Shown: one piece after another, positions 6,001 to 59,688 of the stretch
Position numbering within the stretch: position 1 is the first letter of the stretch
How the letters are laid out: every line of letters starts with the position of its first letter
DNA from: Catajapyx aquilonaris
Lineage: Eukaryota
Reading direction: 5' to 3'
Length of the DNA stretch: 64,000 bases
Assembly (NCBI GenBank): GCA_000934665.2
Contig: KZ538166.1
Coordinates: 1 to 64,000 of the forward strand
The notes under the pieces: generated by a model
The model's input: only the letters and a program-made list of their open reading frames with translations
Databases searched by the model: none
Told to the model about the DNA's origin: nothing
Program-made: the position numbers and the translations under genes

Positions 6001-9000
6001 TAACCAGGAGCGGGGAGGTTTCACTCAGTTAGGACATTCCAAATGCAGCCTGGGCTTTTCTACTGGGTTGGGGGGTGGGGGTGAAAGTGTGTATGTGAAA
6101 GAAGGGGTGGACAGGATGGGAATGATTGGGCCCAAGTCCAAGTCGGACAGTGGCCACCACATGACTGGGCTCGAATCCAACTCGGCGATAATAAACTAGG
6201 CTCGGACATTGTTCCTCCCTGGTGTACCGGGGGCAAGAATGACATGGAGGTCGCTACTCGTGGGACTTTGGTGAGGATGTTTGCCTTACTGAAACCCAGC
6301 CTTTATCGCGTCTGGAGTCGAGGATTAGCGTCGTTTTTGCCCTCGCGCCTTGGAAGGGGGTCGTCGCAAAAGTGAGCGTTGCTTACAGGGGGGAGAGGGG
6401 GTGGTTAAAATGGCGGAATTTTTGCGGGCGTCTTTTATGGACGACCCCCGAGGCGGTGCATGGAAATGAAAAAAAAGAGGAGAAAATAAAGAAAAGGAAA
6501 ATGGGAGTCGGATTTTTACACGCCTGACAAATTTATTGTTCTTCCTTCAATCGAATGAAAGGCGGCGGCGAATGGAGGCGGGTGGTAGCAGCTGTTGTCT
6601 GGAGCTGCTGCAGCGGAACTGGCAAAATATCGATGGCTTCTGGTGGCGGTGGATATGGAGCTTAGGAAGTCAGTGCACTGCAGCCCTAACTGACCTTACC
6701 TTTTGCAATCCATTTTATTGGAGACCCCAGGGCATGCAGCGGCATGTTGACAAAACAAAGGAGGCTTACCCTTCACTATATTGATGAGAGTAAAGTGGCG
6801 GTTAATGAATTAATGCACTGCTTAATGTAAATTAGTGGTTGAGATATTTACATCTTTGTGTAATGTGCTCAGTCACGTATGCGCTTTGATGTGTACCATA
6901 CACACTACATTACACTTGCTGTTCATTAAAAGGTAAACAAACCTAGTCCGCCACAGGCCCTATTCAACTCATCGTGCCTGTTGACCCTTGCACACATTTT
7001 GTATTAGCGAGAGAGCGTATAAAACCGCTTCCGAAATTCACCCCACTTAGAACCATGTTGCCACCTCTGCTTCGTGTTTGCAATACTAGGTGAAACATTT
7101 CAGAATTGCTTTACATTTTTTGAGCTAGTTACGTCTATTGCATTTCAGTCCACGCCGCTTTTTGTAACTTTTCACTGGGTGCAGAGCCAGGGGAATACTC
7201 TAATGATTGCTACTTCAAAACCGTGGCCGCCACAAATAACGTATTTCCCCTTTTCCAATAACGATCGACTAGTGGAGAAGCATGAGGCCAGCTTTGTTTC
7301 CTCGCCACTATGCTGGAAAATGCAGCACCGTGTTTATACAGTATGTGCGTATCTGCTGCAGTATTACTTGCATCTACATTAAACCTGTTGTATACTTATA
7401 AACTGTCACAAAAGTTGCTCCCCTAAACGAGATCCATATGCACGTGAAAAATGATTATGATATTTAATTTATAGTCCTGTAGTGTCATCGTAGGAGGTTT
7501 CTACCTGCTCACATCTTGTGACTGGCATTGTAACTTGAAAATTTGGAACCCCCTGTACTGCATAGGAATAATTAGAAGTGTTAGAAACTTCTGTGGGTTT
7601 AGCAAGATAGTGTGAGGAAAGAGGTGAGATTTCAAAAGGCGTGGGAGTGTGAAATGTGAGGCTTCGGTGTTAGTGCCAAAATCCCCTGTGGGTTTCTGGT
7701 ACTAGAGAGGATTGGAGGGTGTGAAAGGAAGTGATTGAGTCCTTTTGCATGATGCAGGGCTTCCTTCGAATTGTTGGCTGGTTAAGTGGAAATAGTTGGA
7801 GCGAAAGTAGCGCTTCTTTTCCTTTCGGTGATCGAGAAGGCCTCCCAAATGAAGGCTCGGATTCCTTTTTTTCCCCTTCTTCTCCCCCTTTTTTTCACTC
7901 CCTACCCTACCCCTCCTCTCCCTCACCCTTGCCTCAAGAGAACCGTCCTGTGTACGGCACTGATTTAATCTTCCGGGCACAAAGGATGTCGGAAAGTGGT
8001 GAATCGGTTTTCTAGACTCAAGCCGCATTTTCACCCTTAGAGTTCGCTCGAATTTCAAAGCCACTCACCTGTAGCCTATTCTACGCCAATGCATCCCTTG
8101 TGCTGTCTTCTTTTCATCAGACCTGCAGAGGGATTTTATCTGCCGATTGCCACGTATTGGAAAAGAATTTTTCTTTTTCTCCGACGTACCATCTTGCAAG
8201 TGAGGAATATCCTCGATCTTTGCCTTCCGCTGCAGTTTATCCATTCTTATCATCTGCGCCAGCCTCACCAAAATGTCTCCGATTTCATTCTAGAGAGTGT
8301 CTTTAATCGCACTAGAGACCTCGTCGTGGAATAGACCTTGACGTCAACCGCTTAGTAAAAAGGAAGCAATATTTCAAAGTGTATTCAATCTTTTATTCTT
8401 TCGATGTGGTAAAAATGCATTAATGAAATTGTATGTAAATAGCGCGGTATTGAAAAATGTATGACATTATTGAAGGCAGAATTACTTAAAATTAATTTCC
8501 GCTGAGCACAATGGGCCCATAGTTCCTTGAAATTACCCCCATCCGGAATAAGCGCTAATTGTGCGAGATACTGTTGCATGCCAGCTAATATTGATTTGCC
8601 TGGAGTCAGATATACAGGACCACGTTTAAAGCGCTTGGCGGGAAGCCGCAAACGCAATTTTTGTGTGATCCAGCAGATGGCCCTGTCACAGACCGGGTTT
8701 CTCTCGGGTTCACATGTTCTGTATCATGGCGGCGGACTATCCGTGGAAATTGTTAGTCCTATACTACACGAGTCTCCGGGGCGATTGTTCAGTCAGTGTT
8801 CAAGCGCTTCAGGCGAATAGTGGGCTCGTTAGTATTAGCCCTGTGGTATTAGCAGAACGGCTCCTCACGCGGTGTCGCGGAAGCGTGTGTGGGGGGTGAA
8901 TAAAGGCCACGATGACCAAAGTTGGCGGCTAGCCCTAAGACCTAGAGGTTTTTGTAGGTACGATAGTGTTTAGAGTACAGTATTCTGCAAGTGGCCACCA

Positions 9001-18294: not shown

Positions 18295-18366
18295 GTCTCT
18301 TTAGTTTAGTGGCAGAACACACATTCAACAAGAGTGTGGACCTGGGTTCAATTCCCAGCGGAGGCA
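18295..18366 (+). pseudogene. tRNA-Val(AAC)-like pseudogene or SINE head (the SINE may extend to the A-run near 18604)
   Basis: Folds as a degenerate cloverleaf: A box tagtttagtgg, D-stem gttt/gaac, anticodon loop tcAACaa, perfect T-arm ctggg-ttcaatt-cccag. Mismatches in the acceptor and anticodon stems and C at position 33 argue against a functional tRNA. Confidence 0.65.
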
Positions 18367-25500: not shown

Positions 25501-28500
25501 TCTAAATGGTATGTTGCTACGAATACGTTATTGCTGAGGCTATGCTTTAAATATTGCATCATAGTTAGGCCTGTTAACCCCTGTTAATTTCCTGACAACT
25601 GAATTAAATGAAACTGTAATTAGTATATAATTTTGAATCACTGTAGTATAGGCCAACATCCACTCTGCATTTTGCTGCGATAAGAGAGCAACTAAATAAT
25701 TGAGACAAAGGATGGGATTAATGTCGTTGCTCTGAAAGCATTGCTTTACTGCGCTAATAAAAATAGGAAAGCTTTCTCCTACAAAGTAAACGCGAATGTG
25801 AACTAATGCTCTTTAGCACGCAAAAAATGACAGTCATAATCCATTTGCATTTTTAAGTCAGCATTAGTTTGAAAGCCGTTCTACTATGTATAGAAATAGC
25901 TTTTCTTCTTATAATGTTATTATTTCTGCAGCGTTGTAGCTAAAATGTCAAAATAAATTAGTGTTTCTTAACTTGAATGAAAATGCAGAGGTGACAAATA
26001 TTACTGAATATTTTACATTCTATCAAGAACTTGCATTATTTAGAGCCCTGCTAATCAGTATGATATTATGAAGAAATCCTTCATTTTAGAGCATGGTATA
26101 CAGTCCAAAGTATTCATGCCAGGGTCTACGAATCATTCCATGTCAAAACCGCCCAATTCTTCAAAATTAGGAACTCGGCCACTTAAACTTAGTATTCCAA
26201 TAAAACCATGTGCGACTTGCTCTCAATAAATGATTACCAAACCTAAGGTTTTACATTTTTAGAAGAACATTTATCATAATGAGGGCAATCAATAACGTTA
26301 CATTTTTAAAATTAATACTATAACAAATTATAATAACAAAACAGAGTAAAAGTGCTGTGTCTGGAATAATAAAAACAATAGTTATCCGTAGGCTAACAAA
26401 ATAAAAATTAATACAAGATAATGTGTGGCCTCTAAGGTCATTCACACATGGATTTACTGCCCTGAATTAACCAAGCTTTAAAATAAAAAATAGGAAATGC
26501 CAAAAAACTGCGAAATGTGTGATATTTGATCGATTTTTTTTCTTTTAGTGGGACTGGAGGTGTTTCTTTAGAGTTTAGTGCATCAAATTTTCACGTGTGC
26601 ATGACTTTAGACGCCACGTTATCAAATTATTAGATGTACATTTGACATCGTGGTTCGAGTATTGGTTTAACTGGGATGAATTTCTTTACAAGTTGCAAGG
26701 AATGGTCAGCGTGACCTATGTATCATGTCTTAGGTGGGATTTCGATGTCATCTAAAGTTTGTCCGTTTCCCCGGGCGATCCCAGTACACGATCTGGTGGG
26801 ATTAAGCTTTTGCTGTGCCTCTTGGCGCGAAGATAAATGCTACAATCTCCAGGGGATCCGATTGCACTCGGAATAGGGAGGGAGAGAGGTAACAAAAGTA
26901 AGACTCGGCTTCGGCTTTCCATAAGTAAACGAAGTGGTAGACGATGGGCTTGTCCCTAAAGGATTGTTGAGTTCTCACAACCAATCTGAAGAACCAGGAC
27001 CAGTTCACCATATGTTGTCAGTCTTGTTGATACCGACAGTAAACTAATCCTCCGTCGTGCTCTTGCTATAAAAAAATGAGTTATGACGCCAAAGGCTGAT
27101 CTTTTGCATTATCTCAGAAGAGGGGAAGCTGAACTGTCTTGTCTGTTGTATACGAAATTTTTATGAGGTCGGTGCAAAAATGCGTAATGAGACCATGTTT
27201 AATCTCGAGGCCGAAAAAGGAAGTCGCCAGCGGCTGTATATCTTGTGAGATGACGTTTCTTATTATCCTCCCACAAATTCTAGTCACACGTACATTAGCC
27301 TACTCTGCTTTTTTTTGCTTTTTTTCCCCCCTGAGCTTCTGGGTTTTCCGTAATCTTGAGAGCCCGATCTGAGTAATTCTGGCCAGTAACGTTGCGAGTT
27401 GCGTCGTAATTGCTAGGCCGCTTACAGTCTATTACAACGGCATGTCTCTATATAGCAGATGATCCACGAAACGATCTTCATAATCAGGGGGGTCGCACGT
27501 GTGGCCGGGACAAAGCCGCTGTCATGCCATTTTGTCCTACTCGTCAGCATTATTCCTAGTGTTTCACGAGTTTGTTTCGCATAAACTGAGCCTCCACTTG
27601 TCGTGCTTAAAACACGCTTTCCGGCTCATTTATAATCGCGCTTTGATGTGTGTCTGCCGCATGTCGAAACAGCGGCCCATCACTATGACAAGTCTGGTGA
27701 ACCCATCTTGGAGACTATTATGTGAGGCGCCACAAACGATGTCGACAAAAGCGCCATCAAAGTGCTGCAAGGATGCAAAATGGTTCCCACAAAATGGGCT
27801 TGGTAACTGCATGGTCGCTGTGGGATAAGTGAGCCGTTGGAGAGAGGGGGTTGGGGAGTAAGGGGGCGGTGAGGAAGGAGGCCATCATTGTCTTCAGTCC
27901 TTAGCTGCCGACTTCCACTTTCCCTATCCTACCTTCAAATAGCCATTTACTCCGCGATTTCTCCTGGGTTTTCTTATCATGTAAATCCTGCGTTTATGAA
28001 AACTGCCTGTGTCTTATGGTAAGGATACGGTCGCGAATATGAAGATTGAGTGATTCGAAGGTAACTTGCTAGATTGCTCGACATGTTTTCACTGCGTCGT
28101 GATGGCATGACGTGCTATTTATTTAACAGGGCGATAAAGTCATTTCCCAAGCAGGGTGCAGTCATGTATACAAGCTTATGCATTTTGCCATATAACATGA
28201 TGCATAGAGAGGGCTTGCATCAGCCGTTCCAGAAATGAGGTAGTCAAGAAGTGGGATGTCAAATTTTCCTTACCATGCTGGGTGTCCTGAGGAGAATGGC
28301 TTTATTAAATTAATATAATAAGTTAGGACATTTTAGATACTTATACTTGTCAATTTTGTTTCTTCTTTTAAAAGTTCAACTAAGAGCACTGTCATCATCA
28401 ATGAAACCTGTGGGAAGACAAACATTCTCCATTCTATTTGTACTCTCACAGAGTTCTAAAAGCCCTTTCCCATCAATTTTTCGCCTCATTCCCAGTCCAA

Positions 28501-28604
28501 AGAATGCAACAAAACCAATGCACTAGAGCCCCACGTCAATATTACTACACTTCCTAACCAGTTCCAAAATGACCTTACACTGAAAACCTGGGGTGCATAA
28601 TTTT

Positions 28605-28839
28605 ATTCACTTACCAACTCGAAACTGGGACAGGTGAATAATTTCACTTTATTCATTTCAAATGCATTAATATATGCATTGAGTGCATTTTTAAATTCAC
28701 CATATTGGAGAAGTGAATAATTTCACTCTATTCATTTAGTAAATAAACTTATGCATCAATGTGAATATATTAATTCACTTGCCAACTTGAAACTGGGACA
28801 GGTGAATAAAGTCACTTTATTCATTTAAGTGCATTAATA
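28605..28839. repeat. Subterminal direct repeats of the CACT-ended element
   Basis: An approximately 67 bp unit, attcactt(a/g)ccaact(c/t)gaaactgggacaggtgaataa...cactttattcattt...tgcattaata, occurs at 28605-28672 and 28773-28839, with a degenerate partial copy between them (about 28693-28738). Confidence 0.8.
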
Positions 28840-28899
28840 GACTATATGCATTGGATGAATTCTTTGGCAGTTCAATACACACCTGTATAAATAAATGTA

Positions 28900-29790
28900 T
28901 GCATTTTGCAATAATCATTTATTTCCAATACTAATTGACATACATTGAGTAAATACATGCACAGTATTAAAATATGCTGCAGCTGATTCCTTTCATAACA
29001 ACATCCTTATATAATATTTCCTTTGATCGTCATAAAATTCTGCATTTCTGATGCGGTCATTATAAGGATTATCCTAATAATCTTCTGCATAATATGACAT
29101 GAAATTATGAGCCACAAATTAATGAAATGAAGCACAGCCGAGGCATACACTTACGTACAGTTAATACTGACATTTGTATACATTGACGGAGGAGAAGTGT
29201 GCAATTCTACATGTACCATGCTTCCTTTGTTCAATATTCATAATCTCCGGTACGGATGCGGCTGTCTGGAAGAAAAGGGTTGGAGTAAATGCATGAAATT
29301 AATTACTGCGTAATTATTAACATTATTACTCTGAAATATTAAAGATTATGATTACACAAATTACTGTACACATACTTACATATTTCATTTCCTTTTTCAT
29401 CCGCGCCTTGTGGTTAATTATTTTTGAAGCCATGTGGAGTCACGTTTTGGAGTGAAGTAAGTCGATTTCCAAAACAAATAATTTTTGCTGTAAGTGGAAC
29501 AGTAATTAGTGCTAACGCCAAAAATGCACTCAAATGGGGGAAATCAAATAGAAACGGAGTGTCGCATAGAGGAACAGATCAAACATATAGTACGACAGCA
29601 GTGTAAAGGTCAACAAATACGGATACATTATTACTTGGTCATCTAGGCTACTTACGTTGCTGATGTGTCCATAGTACTCGCGGCCCCGCCTTCCGTCATC
29701 CCTTCCGTTGCCAAACGAAGGCTGCTTCAGTCTTGTCAGTATAAGTTGGCTCCCGATGACCGCAAGCCCGATAGACCTGACCTTCATCAT
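28900..29790 (-). ncRNA. Putative spliced non-coding or micropeptide transcription unit inside the transposon (4 predicted exons)
   Basis: Minus-strand GTAAGT donors begin at 29655, 29379 and 29154. Acceptors are ctaattactgttccacttacAG (29489-88), ccttttcttccAG (29267-66) and tattatgcAG (29086-85). AATAAA at 28923-28918. Transcript ends are approximate and there is no expression evidence. Confidence 0.45.
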
Positions 29791-30009
29791 GACGTCACAC
29801 GCATGACGTCATGCCCTAATCAAACCTTTAATTTATTCACTACCTGCATAAAATGCATAAATGCAGTAAGTGAATGGAAAAAAGCAGTACATTATTTCAT
29901 TCACTTATTGCATTTGATGCAGTTATGCAGTAAGTGAATAAACTAACGCACTGCTTTTGTTCCATTCACTTACTGCATAAACTGCATGAAATGAATAAAA
30001 ATGACGTCA
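29790..30009. promoter_or_regulatory. Cluster of three perfect CRE palindromes (TGACGTCA)
   Basis: TGACGTCA at 29790-29797, 29804-29811 and 30002-30009, directly upstream of the predicted minus-strand exon 1. Confidence 0.4.
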
Positions 30010-31789
30010 ATATGCACTATATGAATAACATCATTCATATAGTGAATTTAATTACTTACTTAGCGAATGTTGTCGCTGCATAAATTTATGCAGCTTTCAC
30101 AAGTGAATAAAATAATGCAAACCATTGACATTTCGTGCATAATTTCATGCGATAGGTGCATATTCTGCTCCACATATTCACTTCGTGCATATTTTAATGC
30201 ACTCCAGGTTTTCAGTGTACCTTCCACCCTGAAGGCTTTCTCTCACCTTTCGCTCACTCACAATTCAACATTTTACTTGCTCTCACGCAAACTGGACCTT
30301 TACCTTACAACGTTTCTATGCTCTTGAGGAACGGAATGTGTCACCTTATCATTTCACCTCTACCAAGGTGGTATACGTCTTTCTTGTGTTATCTTTTTTA
30401 TCTCTTGTTCAAGCAAGCCATGCATACACTGGCCAACTACGCAACGGTCATAGGTTTAACTTTACTATTCCCATCGCGTAGAGCACACAAACTAAGAGTT
30501 AGGCAAATTATGCAGTTGGCAAGTGAAAATGGTTAAACGGACTTTATCAGCTATGGGTCATAGTTTTTTAAACTTAAGAACCGCGTTGTACTTAATACTC
30601 TCTTCATAATGTCGTATAGCGTACATTCTCTCACCCCCTCCCTCGCATTTCAAGGAATTTATGGCGCAGACTGTACACGTATTTTATACCAGTCTACATG
30701 GCTAAGTACCCCCCACCTCCTCCCAATTAGACAATTACTGGAACCACCATTGCGTTGTAGGGTTTAGTGTGCCTCCAGCAGGCTCTGTTCAGAATAAAAG
30801 CTCTCCCGACTTCGAAAAAGTTGGGAACCATTGGCTTAATGACTCATATAAACATTGTTAAATGACTTTTGCCGTAGCCTCTAGTTATATATTTTTTAAA
30901 TAGGCACGGATGTCACATTATAGTAGTTGTTGCAGTCACAAACCACAACAGAGGGAATATTGAAGCTCACGTCAGCCACTCTGAGGTTAATTTGTATGAA
31001 GCTATATCCATGAGATGAATGTGTCAACACCCTTTTAGGCCTAATTGTCACCATTATAACTGAAAGAATCATTATAAATAAATAATATAATGACATTTCA
31101 TTTTGCATACGGTACTGCATTGTTGAGATATAGCTAGGCCACTGGGTAGCTAAGCATAAAAGTCGTGGATTTATGCACATTTATATGCATAATATAATAA
31201 TTTGGTTATACCCCAACAAAGGGCTTCGGCCTTTTAATGGATCTTCTTTTTAACTGACCGACTAGCTGGCGATGGATTTTGATTGTGGGAGGAAATACAA
31301 TAATACCGAACGAAACCACGCACGCAGGGAGAGATCCCATCGAAACTCTTTGCAAATGAGAAATATCTTCTGTCCATCCCTGGAATCTAACTCGAGACAT
31401 CAGAGGTGGAAGGCTGTGTATAGTCAATATATTCACCACCATGTCGCCTATATTGTTGATATTAGTAAAATTATATTGAGTTGAAGTACTGTACAAAGCA
31501 ATTAATAGATTATTAGTATACCAATAAACTTTCACAATTGATAAATAGTCTTTAACTACGTATTATGAGTAGCAAGATACATCACGCTTTGATGGTCATA
31601 ATATTCAATCCAACCCACATAATTTTCCGAGACATGCATGAACATTATGCACACTTTCGAGTACGAATTTGATTGTCTTGGTGTCCTGTCACCAGCAAAT
31701 ACGACGTATTAACCACTATATACAGTATACAGGGTGTTTCTTACATATAGGTCCACCACCACAAAGTTACTCTTGGTAAAAACATTTAT

Positions 31790-35425: not shown

Positions 35426-36865
35426 TATACATCAAGTATGAATTCATCCGGCGTAGTGCGATATTTATACTCATGGCGACAAAAATTATTTTGCTACAAG
35501 ACAAAATTTATGTAATTAGGGTTACAGTGTTTATGATTATTATGTGTTGGGCAGAAAGGGTACAGCATCTGGATGCTGCAGCTCTTCTACCAGGAGGGTC
35601 CCAATTCAATACCCGGAACCATCAGCTTGTCAGAAAGGTCTGCATGAAGCCCTCCCATATCCAGTCCTCCCACCTGTCTATCGCCTGGCTCGTCAAAAAA
35701 TAGCACACGTCTCATCATGTCCGCAATATTTTATCGATTGAACCCAAAACCTACGATTGATAGCATAGTTGTGTAAAGACTTCCTTCTTCTTCCTCCAAA
35801 TCCTTTTTGCATGGCTGTAGTTCCAAAAGTAATGTATTTTATAGACTATGTCAGTATTTGCCTGAAATTATAATTATATATTTTGAAAGATTGCATGTTT
35901 TTTATTACTATCTACAGATGGTAGGTAATTTTTGGTAGATTAATTTGGAATAAAAATAATAAAAAAGATGGCGAGGGAAAGAGAGGATGAGGAGGGGTAG
36001 AGAAGGATTTGGCGCCGAGTGGCAGATGTTAGGAGCATCTACGCTCTAGATATCCCGTGGCTGGAGTTGAGTGATTCCCACTGCAAAAAAGAGCCTCCAT
36101 GATTGATAACGCGCCTGCTCCTTGGCATTTTTCTATTCTTCGCCAGGAGAAGTTTTATAGTCAGTCTTTTCTCTTTAAGAAAAAAAGTTCTTCCACACTT
36201 TTCTCACAATGTTTTTGACATGAGATTTCCAACTTTATAACTACATGGCTAAGGAAATCGCTTACCCGGTTTTACAGCTAATAATACTGGAATTTATACT
36301 CCGAAACTTTGTTGTCTTTTCACGCTGGGAGGAATGAAACTTTCACACTGTTGTTGTAAGCCCACGTGGCTTCAATTAGACCAATAAGCCTGGGTTGTAA
36401 TCCCATTGCACATACTGAATCTGCCTTGTCCTGATGGCAGTAGCCTATTAGTCCTAAGCGCAGGCTATGCATTACGCACGAATCCATTGCAATTAACATT
36501 GGAACTTTTATTACTCATAAAAGTGGTTATCACCTTTAATGGCGCATTTACTTCGACAGTTGTGGAAAAGGTAGGTAGTACTTAGAAGTGATCGTAGCAC
36601 CTTTTTTTATATACCGCATGCTATATTCTTTTGGTGGCGTGTTTTTCGAATATTAGATGACCATCTGGGACTTCCGCAAATCTCTTCTTTTCCGGAGACA
36701 GAGAAGAACTCTCGAATCCTCTGCCGGATTTTTTTTTCTCCTCCTTTCCCCACGGCCTCGCCAATGGTCTATGAAATCTACTTTCCGGGTGCGTCCTCTC
36801 CTTCTCCGGAAAATTTGATTCCGGAAGCGGGGGTCGTATGTAATCTGATGCCTCCTTGTTGACAG

Positions 36866-37020
36866 GGCCTTGCTGAGCTACGACACCAATGCCACCGTCA
36901 CCAAACTGGATATTCGTCCTCTCAACACCACAGACGAGGGCACCTACAAATGTGACATCACCTACTTGAATGTTCGAGACAAGTGCGCCGTTGCACAGTT
37001 CATTCAGCTGGCAACATTGG
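36866..37020 (+). CDS. Internal coding exon, C-terminal half of a V-type Ig domain of a Sidestep/faint-sausage/nephrin-like IgSF protein
   Basis: Acceptor ccttgttgacAG at 36864-65 and donor GTgagt at 37021. Translation (R)ALLSYDTNATVTKLDIRPLNTTDEGTYKCDITYLNVRDKCAVAQFIQLATL contains the Ig L-x-I...D-x-G-x-Y-x-C motif and N-glycosylation sequons. Ends in phase 1, matching the next exon. Confidence 0.9.
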
Positions 37021-37823
37021 GTGAGTACAGCCTTTTTAAGCTTTTCCAATATGGCTTGGACGCGCATAAGTTACCAACATCAAAGTATAATTGGCTCAGA
37101 AAATGACTGCAAGGTCACGTGGATCTGTCCAAATTATCTGGCCCCTCACCCATCCACATCGTCTCCTATGATGTTTACCCTGGAGAAATGTTCAGATGTC
37201 AGAAGGGATTTTTAAACGTGGGTATCACGTATTTCGGGTTCCATTTGCGTCTGGCAACTCAATTCAAAATCCCAGAAATCCCGTGTAGTCTTTTCCTGGG
37301 CCGGTTATGTGTGTTTTCGTATGTATGAGAGAGTGTGTGTGTTGATCCGCGATTTTTTTAAATAATTGTTGAAGGAGTTGTGTATTCAGTAAGTGCCTTA
37401 ATATCAGTATGGTATAGGATACTCCATGCTGAAATGGTTTTCTGAGGGCTGAGTTAGGTGGAACAAAAGTAGGGAACTTCACGTTACAATGGAGGCTTGC
37501 ATTTCAAGCTGCTCAGAATTCCGCTACTTGTCAAACAATGGCATGTGCAGAATTTGCGCTGGGAATGGAAACTTAAGACATTATAAATTCATGATATAGA
37601 GTGGCCAAGACTCCGATGAGAGTGTATAGGAAGGGAAATAATAATTAACACGTAACTCGAAAGGCTGATTTTTGATTAGTCGTAGGCGGTCATAGGACTA
37701 AAACCAGTAATAATTGGCAATTTTTTGCGACAACGTATTTTAGGGAGTGGTTACCCAGCAGCAAGATTTCACAATATTAGTAAATAATTACTATGCTGTT
37801 ACTATACCTGCTAGTCACGTATT

Positions 37824-58879: not shown

Positions 58880-59235
58880 TATAGGGATGGGAGGGATGGG
58901 GAGGATGTCGCTCATGCATGCCATCCGACAGTGTTTTTCGGTTGCATGGACTCGCCGGTCGTCCACTGACACGAATGCTGCTGGCTTTGAAGATGCATGG
59001 CTATAACCATAACTCGACCACTTGTGTGAAAGCGGATGTCATACAAGAGGACATGACGCATAAAAATTGCAGCAGATGGGCACTAATCTTGGGAACCTGG
59101 ATCATGTCGCGTTATGTATGTGACCGGAGACTCTTCACTGTCGGGGACTGATTTTTTTTATACGGTTAGGTTGCCACCGCTATCTCTTGATCATAATTTC
59201 GCTTGTTTTGATAGTACCATTTTCTGTCCTTTCAG

Positions 59236-59403
59236 CTGCACCCAAGTCGGTGAACATCAGCCTAGCCGAAGGGGGTTTGCTACAAAATGCCACCCTTCTT
59301 GGACCCTTCAACGAAGGGATTACATTGTCGCTCTTATGCGAATCGGGCGGAGGAAAGCCCGTGGCTCGATTGTCCTGGTGGAATGGATCCGAAGAGGTTG
59401 CGG
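59236..59403 (+). CDS. Internal coding exon, N-terminal half of the second Ig (C2-like) domain of the same IgSF gene
   Basis: Acceptor tttctgtcctttcAG at 59234-35 and donor GTaagt at 59404; phase 1/1. Translation AAPKSVNISLAEGGLLQNATLLGPFNEGITLSLLCESGGGKPVARLSWWNGSEEVA(G) has the GP-x-x-EG...L-x-C...GG-x-P...W pattern typical of Sidestep-family Ig2. Confidence 0.92.
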
Positions 59404-59688
59404 GTAAGTTTATGTGCATTGCTGCCTGGACAGGTGGCCACGACGTAGTTTTCAGTTCATTGTAGGATCCTAGATTATGTTCACAAGGTTATATGATTCA
59501 AGCGATGCTTGTAATGCACAGCTAATTTATTAATAGACTACGTAGGTGGAAGATTATCGATAAGGGTTAACTGCAATGTACTGTACCGACTAGAGGTACA
59601 AAAGAGGGGTACGTTTTACAGTTAGATGTAAGAGGCCTATTAGTTTCAGTTAGATAGGGTCAGCCCAGGCATGTTGCGATTCTATTCA

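Follow-up and report, generated by a model that had tools for sequence, protein, structure and literature searches.

The dSpm and Ds elements of maize are relics of autonomous transposons, left by internal deletion. For dSpm/I of the En/Spm system (CACTA), passages of PMC2613891 describe both an origin by internal deletion and movement in trans; the same passages treat non-autonomous CACTA elements in general as internal-deletion derivatives, and mention binding to the subterminal repeats of CACTA elements. A transposon of comparable build was identified at 28578-30217 in the stretch of 64,000 nucleotides (nt) of Catajapyx aquilonaris DNA analysed here (contig KZ538166.1, positions 1 to 64,000; the whole stretch is hereafter called the window). 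It is likewise non-autonomous, and shares with dSpm/I the ends starting with CAC, the subterminal repeat blocks and a probable short target duplication. It differs from dSpm/I in that the ends read CACTG and not CACTA, the duplication may be TA and not 3 bp, the host is probably an animal, as judged from weak immunoglobulin (Ig)-like exons, and neither an autonomous partner nor a transposase remnant was seen. Within its interior, two of the three introns predicted on the minus strand appear to be spliced out in contigs of a public run, junctions predicted from the raw sequence being recovered to the base; the contigs agree with three exons or more, and not with the four-exon model.

Other described systems share some of these properties. 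In animals and fungi, the ends 5'-CAC..GTG-3' are common to Chapaev, Mirage and 'CMCT' elements, and for this CACTA/EnSpm-Mirage-Chapaev group the passages drawn on here give target duplications of 3-4 bp (PMC4079192) or, with the ends written as CA..TG, of 2-5 bp (PMC12730594). Pack-CACTA and other Pack-TYPE elements of plants are also non-autonomous, and parts of PMC6379663 and PMC8903248 describe in them a transcribable cargo with exons and introns; the present transposon is different from these with respect to its cargo, for which no host-gene homology was found, and to its transcript, which includes the transposon's own subterminal repeats. Precursors of microRNA derived from miniature inverted-repeat transposable elements resemble it in having a long near-perfect hairpin of transposon end sequence in a transcribed region. 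Mu killer in maize is reportedly a source of hairpin RNA derived from a transposon. Hairpin sources of this type are made by rearrangement, whereas the hairpin described below is built into every full copy. For animals, a literature search found no report of a non-autonomous DNA transposon with a unit that is spliced, which is not proof of absence; a transcribed deletion derivative of a DNA transposon is of a kind already known.

Contigs joined across the predicted introns

The original prediction had read, from the letters of the window, a complete gene of four exons on the minus strand inside the transposon. Upon reading of both strands, its motifs were all found in place. The GTAAGT donors on the minus strand are at 29655-29650, 29379-29374 and 29154-29149, and the AG acceptors at 29489-29488 (with CTAAT about 18 nt upstream), 29267-29266 (with a good pyrimidine tract) and 29086-29085, giving predicted introns of 168, 114 and 70 nt.

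Contigs from the public runs X1, X2, X3 and X5 were placed on 27076-31575 at a likeness of at least 80. The runs X1-X4 belong to one sample and are marked 'DNA?', and X5 belongs to another study, with no library kind on record. None of the runs is listed as RNA, which says nothing for or against expression. A total of four pieces on the transposon interior were obtained from X5. No X5 contig fell on 28726-28875, in the two end bins or in the unique flanks, a hint that X5 is RNA, although regions lacking coverage were not counted as evidence. The X5 contigs stem from other copies of the transposon, since 8 of the 12 placed are less than 90% alike to the window copy, and at the listed variant places they mostly share letters with the high-depth DNA contigs. 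The features of the unit as they follow from these contigs are given below.

29656..29949 (at least), minus strand: first exon as the contigs show it (X5 records 27 and 28)
29488..29655, minus strand: intron 1, 168 nt, GT..AG, with donor GTAAGT and the CTAAT branch-like motif (X5 joint)
29380..29487, minus strand: exon 2, with the ATG (29433-29431) of an open reading frame (ORF) of 52 amino acids (aa) (X5 record 27)
29266..29379, minus strand: intron 2, 114 nt, GT..AG, missing from one X5 contig and present in a second (X5 joint and record 26)
28904..29265, minus strand: last exon as the contigs show it, spanning the originally predicted exon 3, 'intron 3' (29085-29154, unremoved) and exon 4 (X5 record 25)
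28918..28923, minus strand: AATAAA, 14 nt before the stop of an X5 contig at 28904, a contig end that cannot prove an RNA end

The X5 joint 29487->29656 omits 168 nt, reading CT..AC on the plus strand (GT..AG on the minus strand), and is exactly the predicted intron 1, with 30 letters on the shorter side and a depth of 2.8. This joint is absent from X1-X3, though contigs of these runs (records 5, 13 and 21) cross 29488-29655. The second X5 joint, 29263->29383, omits 119 nt with 7 letters between, giving a net loss of 112, with a shorter side of 22 letters and a depth of 2. The net loss equals intron 2 (114 nt) minus a 2-letter insertion behind 29262, which is carried by most copies including that of X5. 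The joint of intron 2 is the weaker of the two, with its short side and 7 unplaced letters, and X1-X3 do not list it; another X5 contig (record 26, 29242-29404) is colinear and retains intron 2. The predicted intron 3 is crossed by a colinear X5 contig (record 25, 28904-29263; 362 letters on 360 bases). At the other end, record 28 (29702-29949) extends the first exon by at least 160 nt past the start at about 29790 of the original prediction, over two TGACGTCA palindromes and into the subterminal hairpin.

The prediction of a spliced unit inside the transposon stood in part, in that introns 1 and 2 are skipped in X5 contigs and intron 3 is not. Splicing is favoured because the removal is base-exact at consensus sites that had been predicted beforehand, which is hard to explain otherwise, and X5 is probably RNA or cDNA. 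The form of a complete four-exon gene did not survive, because the contig 28904-29263 runs colinear through the third intron and into the supposed fourth exon, and because exon 1 reaches 29949. The 3' end of the unit would lie near 28904, just past AATAAA.

Several observations speak against splicing. The library kind of X5 is missing from the record; each joint is a single contig of depth 2-2.8, placed with the likeness threshold at 80; on its shorter side the second joint counts 22 letters, and 7 of its letters are unplaced; and the contigs show neither strand, start nor end, the strand being read from the polarity of GT..AG alone. One might then propose that there is no gene at all, the motifs being chance by-products of a GTAAGT-bearing repeat and the X5 joints reflecting deletions in the DNA or faulty assembly among the many similar copies. 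The two strands of the transposon together have 10 occurrences of GTAAGT, at 6.1 per kb vs 0.42 per kb in the rest of the window (about 15-fold); because 4 of the 10 sit in the subterminal repeat unit, GTAAGT is in part a property of the transposon repeats and not an independent signal. In addition, the placing tool warns on short sides and repeats, and real DNA deletion variants exist (29474->30081 and 29541->30124). Against this stand the first joint, in which the missing 168 nt coincide exactly with the prediction, beginning with the G of GTAAGT and ending with that of AG, and the shorter side matches over 30 letters, the non-canonical ends of the known DNA deletion variants, the failure of three DNA runs with about 30-fold unique depth to list the joint of intron 1, and the position of the second joint at the next predicted intron. 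The absence of any gene is improbable on this evidence.

Ends, copies and affiliation of the transposon

The anatomy of the element was deduced from both-strand reading of 28000-30900 and a repeat search, with the following features.

28578..30217, no strand: copy of a non-autonomous DNA transposon, about 1.64 kb, with CACTG...CAGTG ends and flanking TA on both sides
28578..28612, plus strand: left terminal inverted repeat (inverted pair I1, 83% over 35 nt)
30183..30217, minus strand: right terminal inverted repeat, pairing with the left one
28593..28864, no strand: left subterminal repeat block, families D1, D2 and D6, units with GTGAATAA and TGCAT
29820..30005, minus strand: right subterminal repeat block, inverted pairs I2, I4, I6, I7 and I12, a single long hairpin as RNA
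30002..30009, no strand: TGACGTCA palindrome, the third in the transposon, located upstream of the hairpin as the minus-strand unit is read

The terminal inverted repeats match at 27 of 35 bases, the outermost 14 being identical, and TA borders both transposon ends (28576-28577 and 30218-30219). Short repeats around GTGAATAA and TGCAT lie inward of both ends, on the right as D4, D5 and I2-I12 at 29828-29999 and beyond. The prediction of a non-autonomous transposon with inverted ends was borne out: the ends read CACTG...CAGTG, the element is multi-copy and none of its ORFs matches a transposase family.

Subterminal repeat blocks at both ends, seen here as families D1-D8 and inverted pairs I2-I12, are a hallmark of CACTA elements, and the ends, CACTG from 28578 and CAGTG up to 30217, agree with the 5'-CAC...GTG-3' (CA..TG) form of CMC/CMCT elements. 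The target duplication, as seen in one copy, can be read as TA (2 bp), as CCT (3 bp, with the ends TACACTG) or as ACCTT (5 bp, with the ends ACACTG). The sources consulted in part give 3 bp for EnSpm and 3-4 bp for Chapaev. A 3-bp duplication directly adjoining CACTG was not found, as TTA on the left faces TAC on the right, and this pair likewise departs from the TWA duplications that are made by Chapaev3. The CAC..GTG ends, the short duplication and the subterminal repeats altogether fit the CACTA/EnSpm-Mirage-Chapaev group, to which the transposon may belong; group membership needs a transposase, which is absent from this transposon, and the superfamily stays a candidate.

The depth of contigs in X1-X3, summed per bin, was 205-1573 in all 11 transposon bins vs 28-43 in 18 of the 19 flank bins, the remaining flank bin being a separate repeat. 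Summed contig depth is no copy number, as the tool warns; from the difference between inside and flanks, the transposon is therefore multi-copy over its full length, and the entire transposon, interior included, exists in many similar copies. The window copy is a diverged one, most overlapping contigs differing from it by 5-10% or more. No second copy was found within the window, where self-BLAST gave only internal repeats of the transposon. A 21-base end pattern gave 0 matches in each of metagenome_contigs, genome_contigs and viral_contigs, and an interior 21-mer 0 matches in metagenome_contigs.

Two deletion forms were identified in the DNA runs, one without 29475-30080 (joint 29474->30081, with 25 other letters between, depth 165-200) and the other without 29542-30123 (joint 29541->30124, depth 22-42). 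The ends of their joints are non-canonical (CA..CA and AA..CC), unlike those of the X5 joints. Both deletion subfamilies are without the leader, the palindromes, the hairpin and intron 1. Subfamilies without leader and intron 1 being abundant, the unit is therefore not needed for spread.

Two repeats were noted close to the transposon. Just outside it, 14 bases at 30514-30527 are the exact reverse complement of the left subterminal unit 28774-28787 (pair I19); a joint 30527->31271 in the DNA runs begins at this stretch, which may be a remnant of a related element. At 31276-31425 lies a short repeat of very high copy, with a depth of about 7000-8300 in the DNA runs vs about 30 in the flanks, and of 17 in X5. 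Many different contigs end loosely between 31316 and 31418, several joints vary in length, and the repeat looks similar to a short interspersed nuclear element (SINE-like).

Coding capacity, leader hairpin and origin of the unit

The ORF of 52 aa across exons 2-3 reads as claimed in the window copy, with its ATG in fair context. It was considered that the unit might be a micropeptide gene with this ORF as its product. The frame is, however, private to the window copy: in most DNA contigs and in the X5 contig it is broken by insertions of 2+1+1+1 letters in exon 2 (2 letters behind 29430, directly after the start codon, and single letters at 29420, 29422 and 29423) and of 2 letters at the start of exon 3 (behind 29262), and an insertion at 29435 is recorded in other copies as well. 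For the 52-aa product, no family was found, nor any relatives beyond a chance match inflated by repeats. A micropeptide gene is thus scarcely credible.

The longest interior ORFs of the transposon, of 92 and 96 aa, gave no family match. Among 11 interior ORFs none reached E <= 0.01 with Pfam; relaxing the limit to E <= 1 added three matches (E 0.088-0.22), all of them noise. The Pfam scans of the whole window likewise left both of these long frames unmatched, and the 92-aa frame had no usable Atlas match and no homologues. The claim that the element carries no recognisable transposase agrees with the Pfam search, in which no interior ORF matched a transposase or any other family. Because no ORF is common to the copies, the unit is non-coding.

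The similarity of a 45-aa frame in exon 3 to an ankyrin-repeat protein of 1938 aa (E 3.3e-24) was rejected as repeat inflation. It comes down to one short piece, of 16-25 residues and no more than 27.7 bits, which is scored as many as 15 times in a repetitive protein and is seen in two ankyrin-repeat proteins; no colinear extension was found by tblastn in the transposon, and the full protein gave no match in the window at E 0.01. The match was read as chance because a short piece is multiplied by tandem repetition and has no colinear extension.

Conservation of the exons was examined by comparing the window copy with the major DNA contig at 29441-29956, which differs from it by 17 other letters and 19 gap letters. 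Among the listed differences, which cover 40 of 107 substitutions and 12 of 27 insertions and deletions, 2 fall in intron 1 (168 nt), 12 together with the 19 gap letters in exon 1 (301 nt), and 2 in the 47 nt of exon 2 that this contig covers. Better conservation of exons than of introns was hence not observed, intron 1 having fewer listed differences than exon 1 (2/168 vs 12/301 nt).

The leader of the unit is distinct in composition and has traits that resemble a promoter. The segment 29656-29815 (160 nt) has 56% G+C and a CpG observed/expected ratio of 1.01, vs about 31% G+C and 0.13-0.22 in the repeat blocks. The TGACGTCA palindrome occurs 4 times in the window, where 0.57 is expected, and 3 of these are in the transposon (29790-29797, 29804-29811 and 30002-30009); its sole occurrence outside the transposon is at 8339-8346. 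In Spm, the promoter lies within the subterminal repeats, and the first exon after it is untranslated and rich in G+C, a layout that the present unit resembles and that our literature search did not confirm.

A leader of this composition may also be looked upon as captured host sequence. A CACTA-like element would have picked up the promoter of a cellular gene along with its first exons and introns and then amplified them, so that the splice signals would be those of the parent gene. Its CpG-rich character, 56% G+C and TGACGTCA palindromes resemble a housekeeping promoter and stand out from the A+T-rich remainder (about 30% G+C), and the parts of PMC6379663 and PMC8903248 on Pack-CACTA describe such capture by plant CACTA elements. 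The likeness of the 45-aa exon-3 frame to a piece of 16-25 residues in two ankyrin-repeat proteins would be a weak lead in the same direction, but it is one short piece (at most 27.7 bits) of a repetitive protein, without colinear extension and in a frame not common to the copies. No interior ORF has a Pfam match, and no homology to a host gene was found; an X5 contig joins the leader to the transposon's subterminal repeats, so that transcripts come from transposon copies; and the unit has all its parts, leader to AATAAA, and takes up the interior, as captured fragments would not usually do. Capture is considered unlikely.

Next to the leader, the right subterminal block (29820-30005) forms as RNA one long near-perfect hairpin of -82.2 kcal/mol (z -12.05), and 0 of 200 shuffles were as good. 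The hairpin is at least partly inside the contig-supported first exon, as X5 coverage goes up to 29949, and it could be a source of small RNA. A search of Rfam with the hairpin gave only microRNA-like matches, far below the gathering scores.

With this hairpin, the unit could be a mobile non-coding RNA gene under selection, kept because its product acts, either as a hairpin diced into small RNAs that regulate the family or as an antisense RNA on host genes. The stability of the hairpin far beyond that of shuffles, its partial coverage in X5, the use of the splice sites despite the lack of a coding frame, and the keeping of intron 1 at least as well as the exons between the window copy and the major contig are all in line with this explanation. 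The abundant subfamilies that spread without leader and intron 1 (depth 165-200 and 22-42) are against it, as are the exons being no better kept than the introns and the low Rfam scores; for an antisense action, the X5 contigs come from other copies, and the only Ig-like exons are weak and downstream, with none found upstream. Selection for an RNA product is rather unlikely, with some chance left to it.

A more far-reaching form of this idea is that each full copy would be a self-contained mobile gene of RNA polymerase II, the spliced and polyadenylated non-coding RNA of which starts with a hairpin of about 70 bp made of transposase-binding subterminal repeats; the diced leader would then silence all ends of the family, those of the autonomous partner included. 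This is a speculative proposal with little probability. If true, a defective transposon would carry about a silencer directed against its own family, and host genes at the landing sites might likewise be silenced by it or be subject to its antisense action.

The most likely origin is one that the original prediction had named as its own refuting alternative, namely that the exons are remnants of the transposon's gene. By analogy with the elements described at the outset, the unit may be an internal-deletion derivative of a CACTA/Mirage/Chapaev-like transposon that kept the leader, the 5' introns and the 3' end of the family, a reading that carries about half of our confidence. The unit belongs to the transposon because X5 record 28 begins in the G+C-rich leader and continues into the hairpin of the subterminal repeats. 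It comes to within 270 nt of the right end and stops about 325 nt short of the left one, an interior-wide span as would be expected for the transposon's own gene, and the transposon keeps both ends and has no transposase ORF, like an internal-deletion derivative.

According to this deletion origin, the sequence at 28578-30217 would be one diverged copy of a high-copy family of non-autonomous cut-and-paste transposons, and the space between the repeat blocks would be filled by one minus-strand unit of RNA polymerase II, belonging to the family and not to the locus. The leader would start in or beyond the right subterminal hairpin and cross the CpG-rich segment of 56% G+C, followed by two GT-AG introns (29655-29488 and 29379-29266), the second of which may be removed in only part of the transcripts, and by a last exon that would end at about 28904, just past AATAAA. 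An internal deletion in the transposase gene of the autonomous ancestor would have left the promoter, the untranslated leader, the 5' introns and the 3' end; transcription and splicing of the unit would be by-products, and the transposon would depend for its movement on a transposase supplied in trans and binding to the subterminal repeats.

Four points weigh against the deletion origin. The unit is dispensable for spread, which is as compatible with cargo as with a relic. An autonomous relative did not turn up, the end-pattern and interior scans of metagenome_contigs, genome_contigs and viral_contigs giving 0, and the deletion is proposed by analogy. A transposase remnant is absent from the interior ORFs in the Pfam search. 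The length of the target duplication is ambiguous between 2, 3 and 5 bp, and TA, which may also be read as part of the ends, would fit Tc1/mariner or a Harbinger relative too; subterminal repeat blocks of many units are atypical of Tc1/mariner.

By its many copies, a non-autonomous transposon of this type can distribute a functional promoter together with splice sites and a 3' signal over the genome. Genes that receive a copy can thereby acquire antisense transcripts, alternative exons and premature transcript ends. If the unit is the relic of a transposase gene, it would help to trace the autonomous partner and to classify the family; should the leader hairpin enter small-RNA pathways, the family would contain a built-in source of its own silencing. 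For annotation, gene finders will call the copies as short multi-exon genes, which should be masked as transposon-derived.

Host gene and other features of the window

A Pfam scan of the window, covering 123 stop-to-stop frames on the plus strand and 85 on the minus strand, gave only two weak Ig matches. Both are on the plus strand and below the Pfam cut-offs, a V-set-like frame at 36849-37103 (E 0.0068) and a C2-set_2-like frame at 59124-59462 (E 0.0097). The two frames are located downstream of the transposon and 22 kb apart, and their spacing suggests a long-intron adhesion-type gene of the Ig superfamily. No upstream Ig exon was found among 61 shorter plus-strand frames between 15 and 37 kb, and no relatives of the C2-set-like exon were found in a homologue search. 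The idea of the original prediction that the transposon probably sits within an intron of the plus-strand Ig gene, and could act antisense to it, stays conjectural on these matches.

At its gathering scores, Rfam identified nothing in the window but one tRNA, outside the transposon. This tRNA-like gene at 18295-18366 on the plus strand (39.8 bits with the Rfam tRNA model) was read by ARAGORN as tRNA-Cys with the unusual anticodon ACA; it could be a pseudogene or else form the head of a repeat. Single N letters are at 2711, 10706 and 58871. Simple-sequence runs at about 42.4-42.8 kb and 49.9-50.2 kb appear as poly-SL and poly-Y in the stop-to-stop frames.

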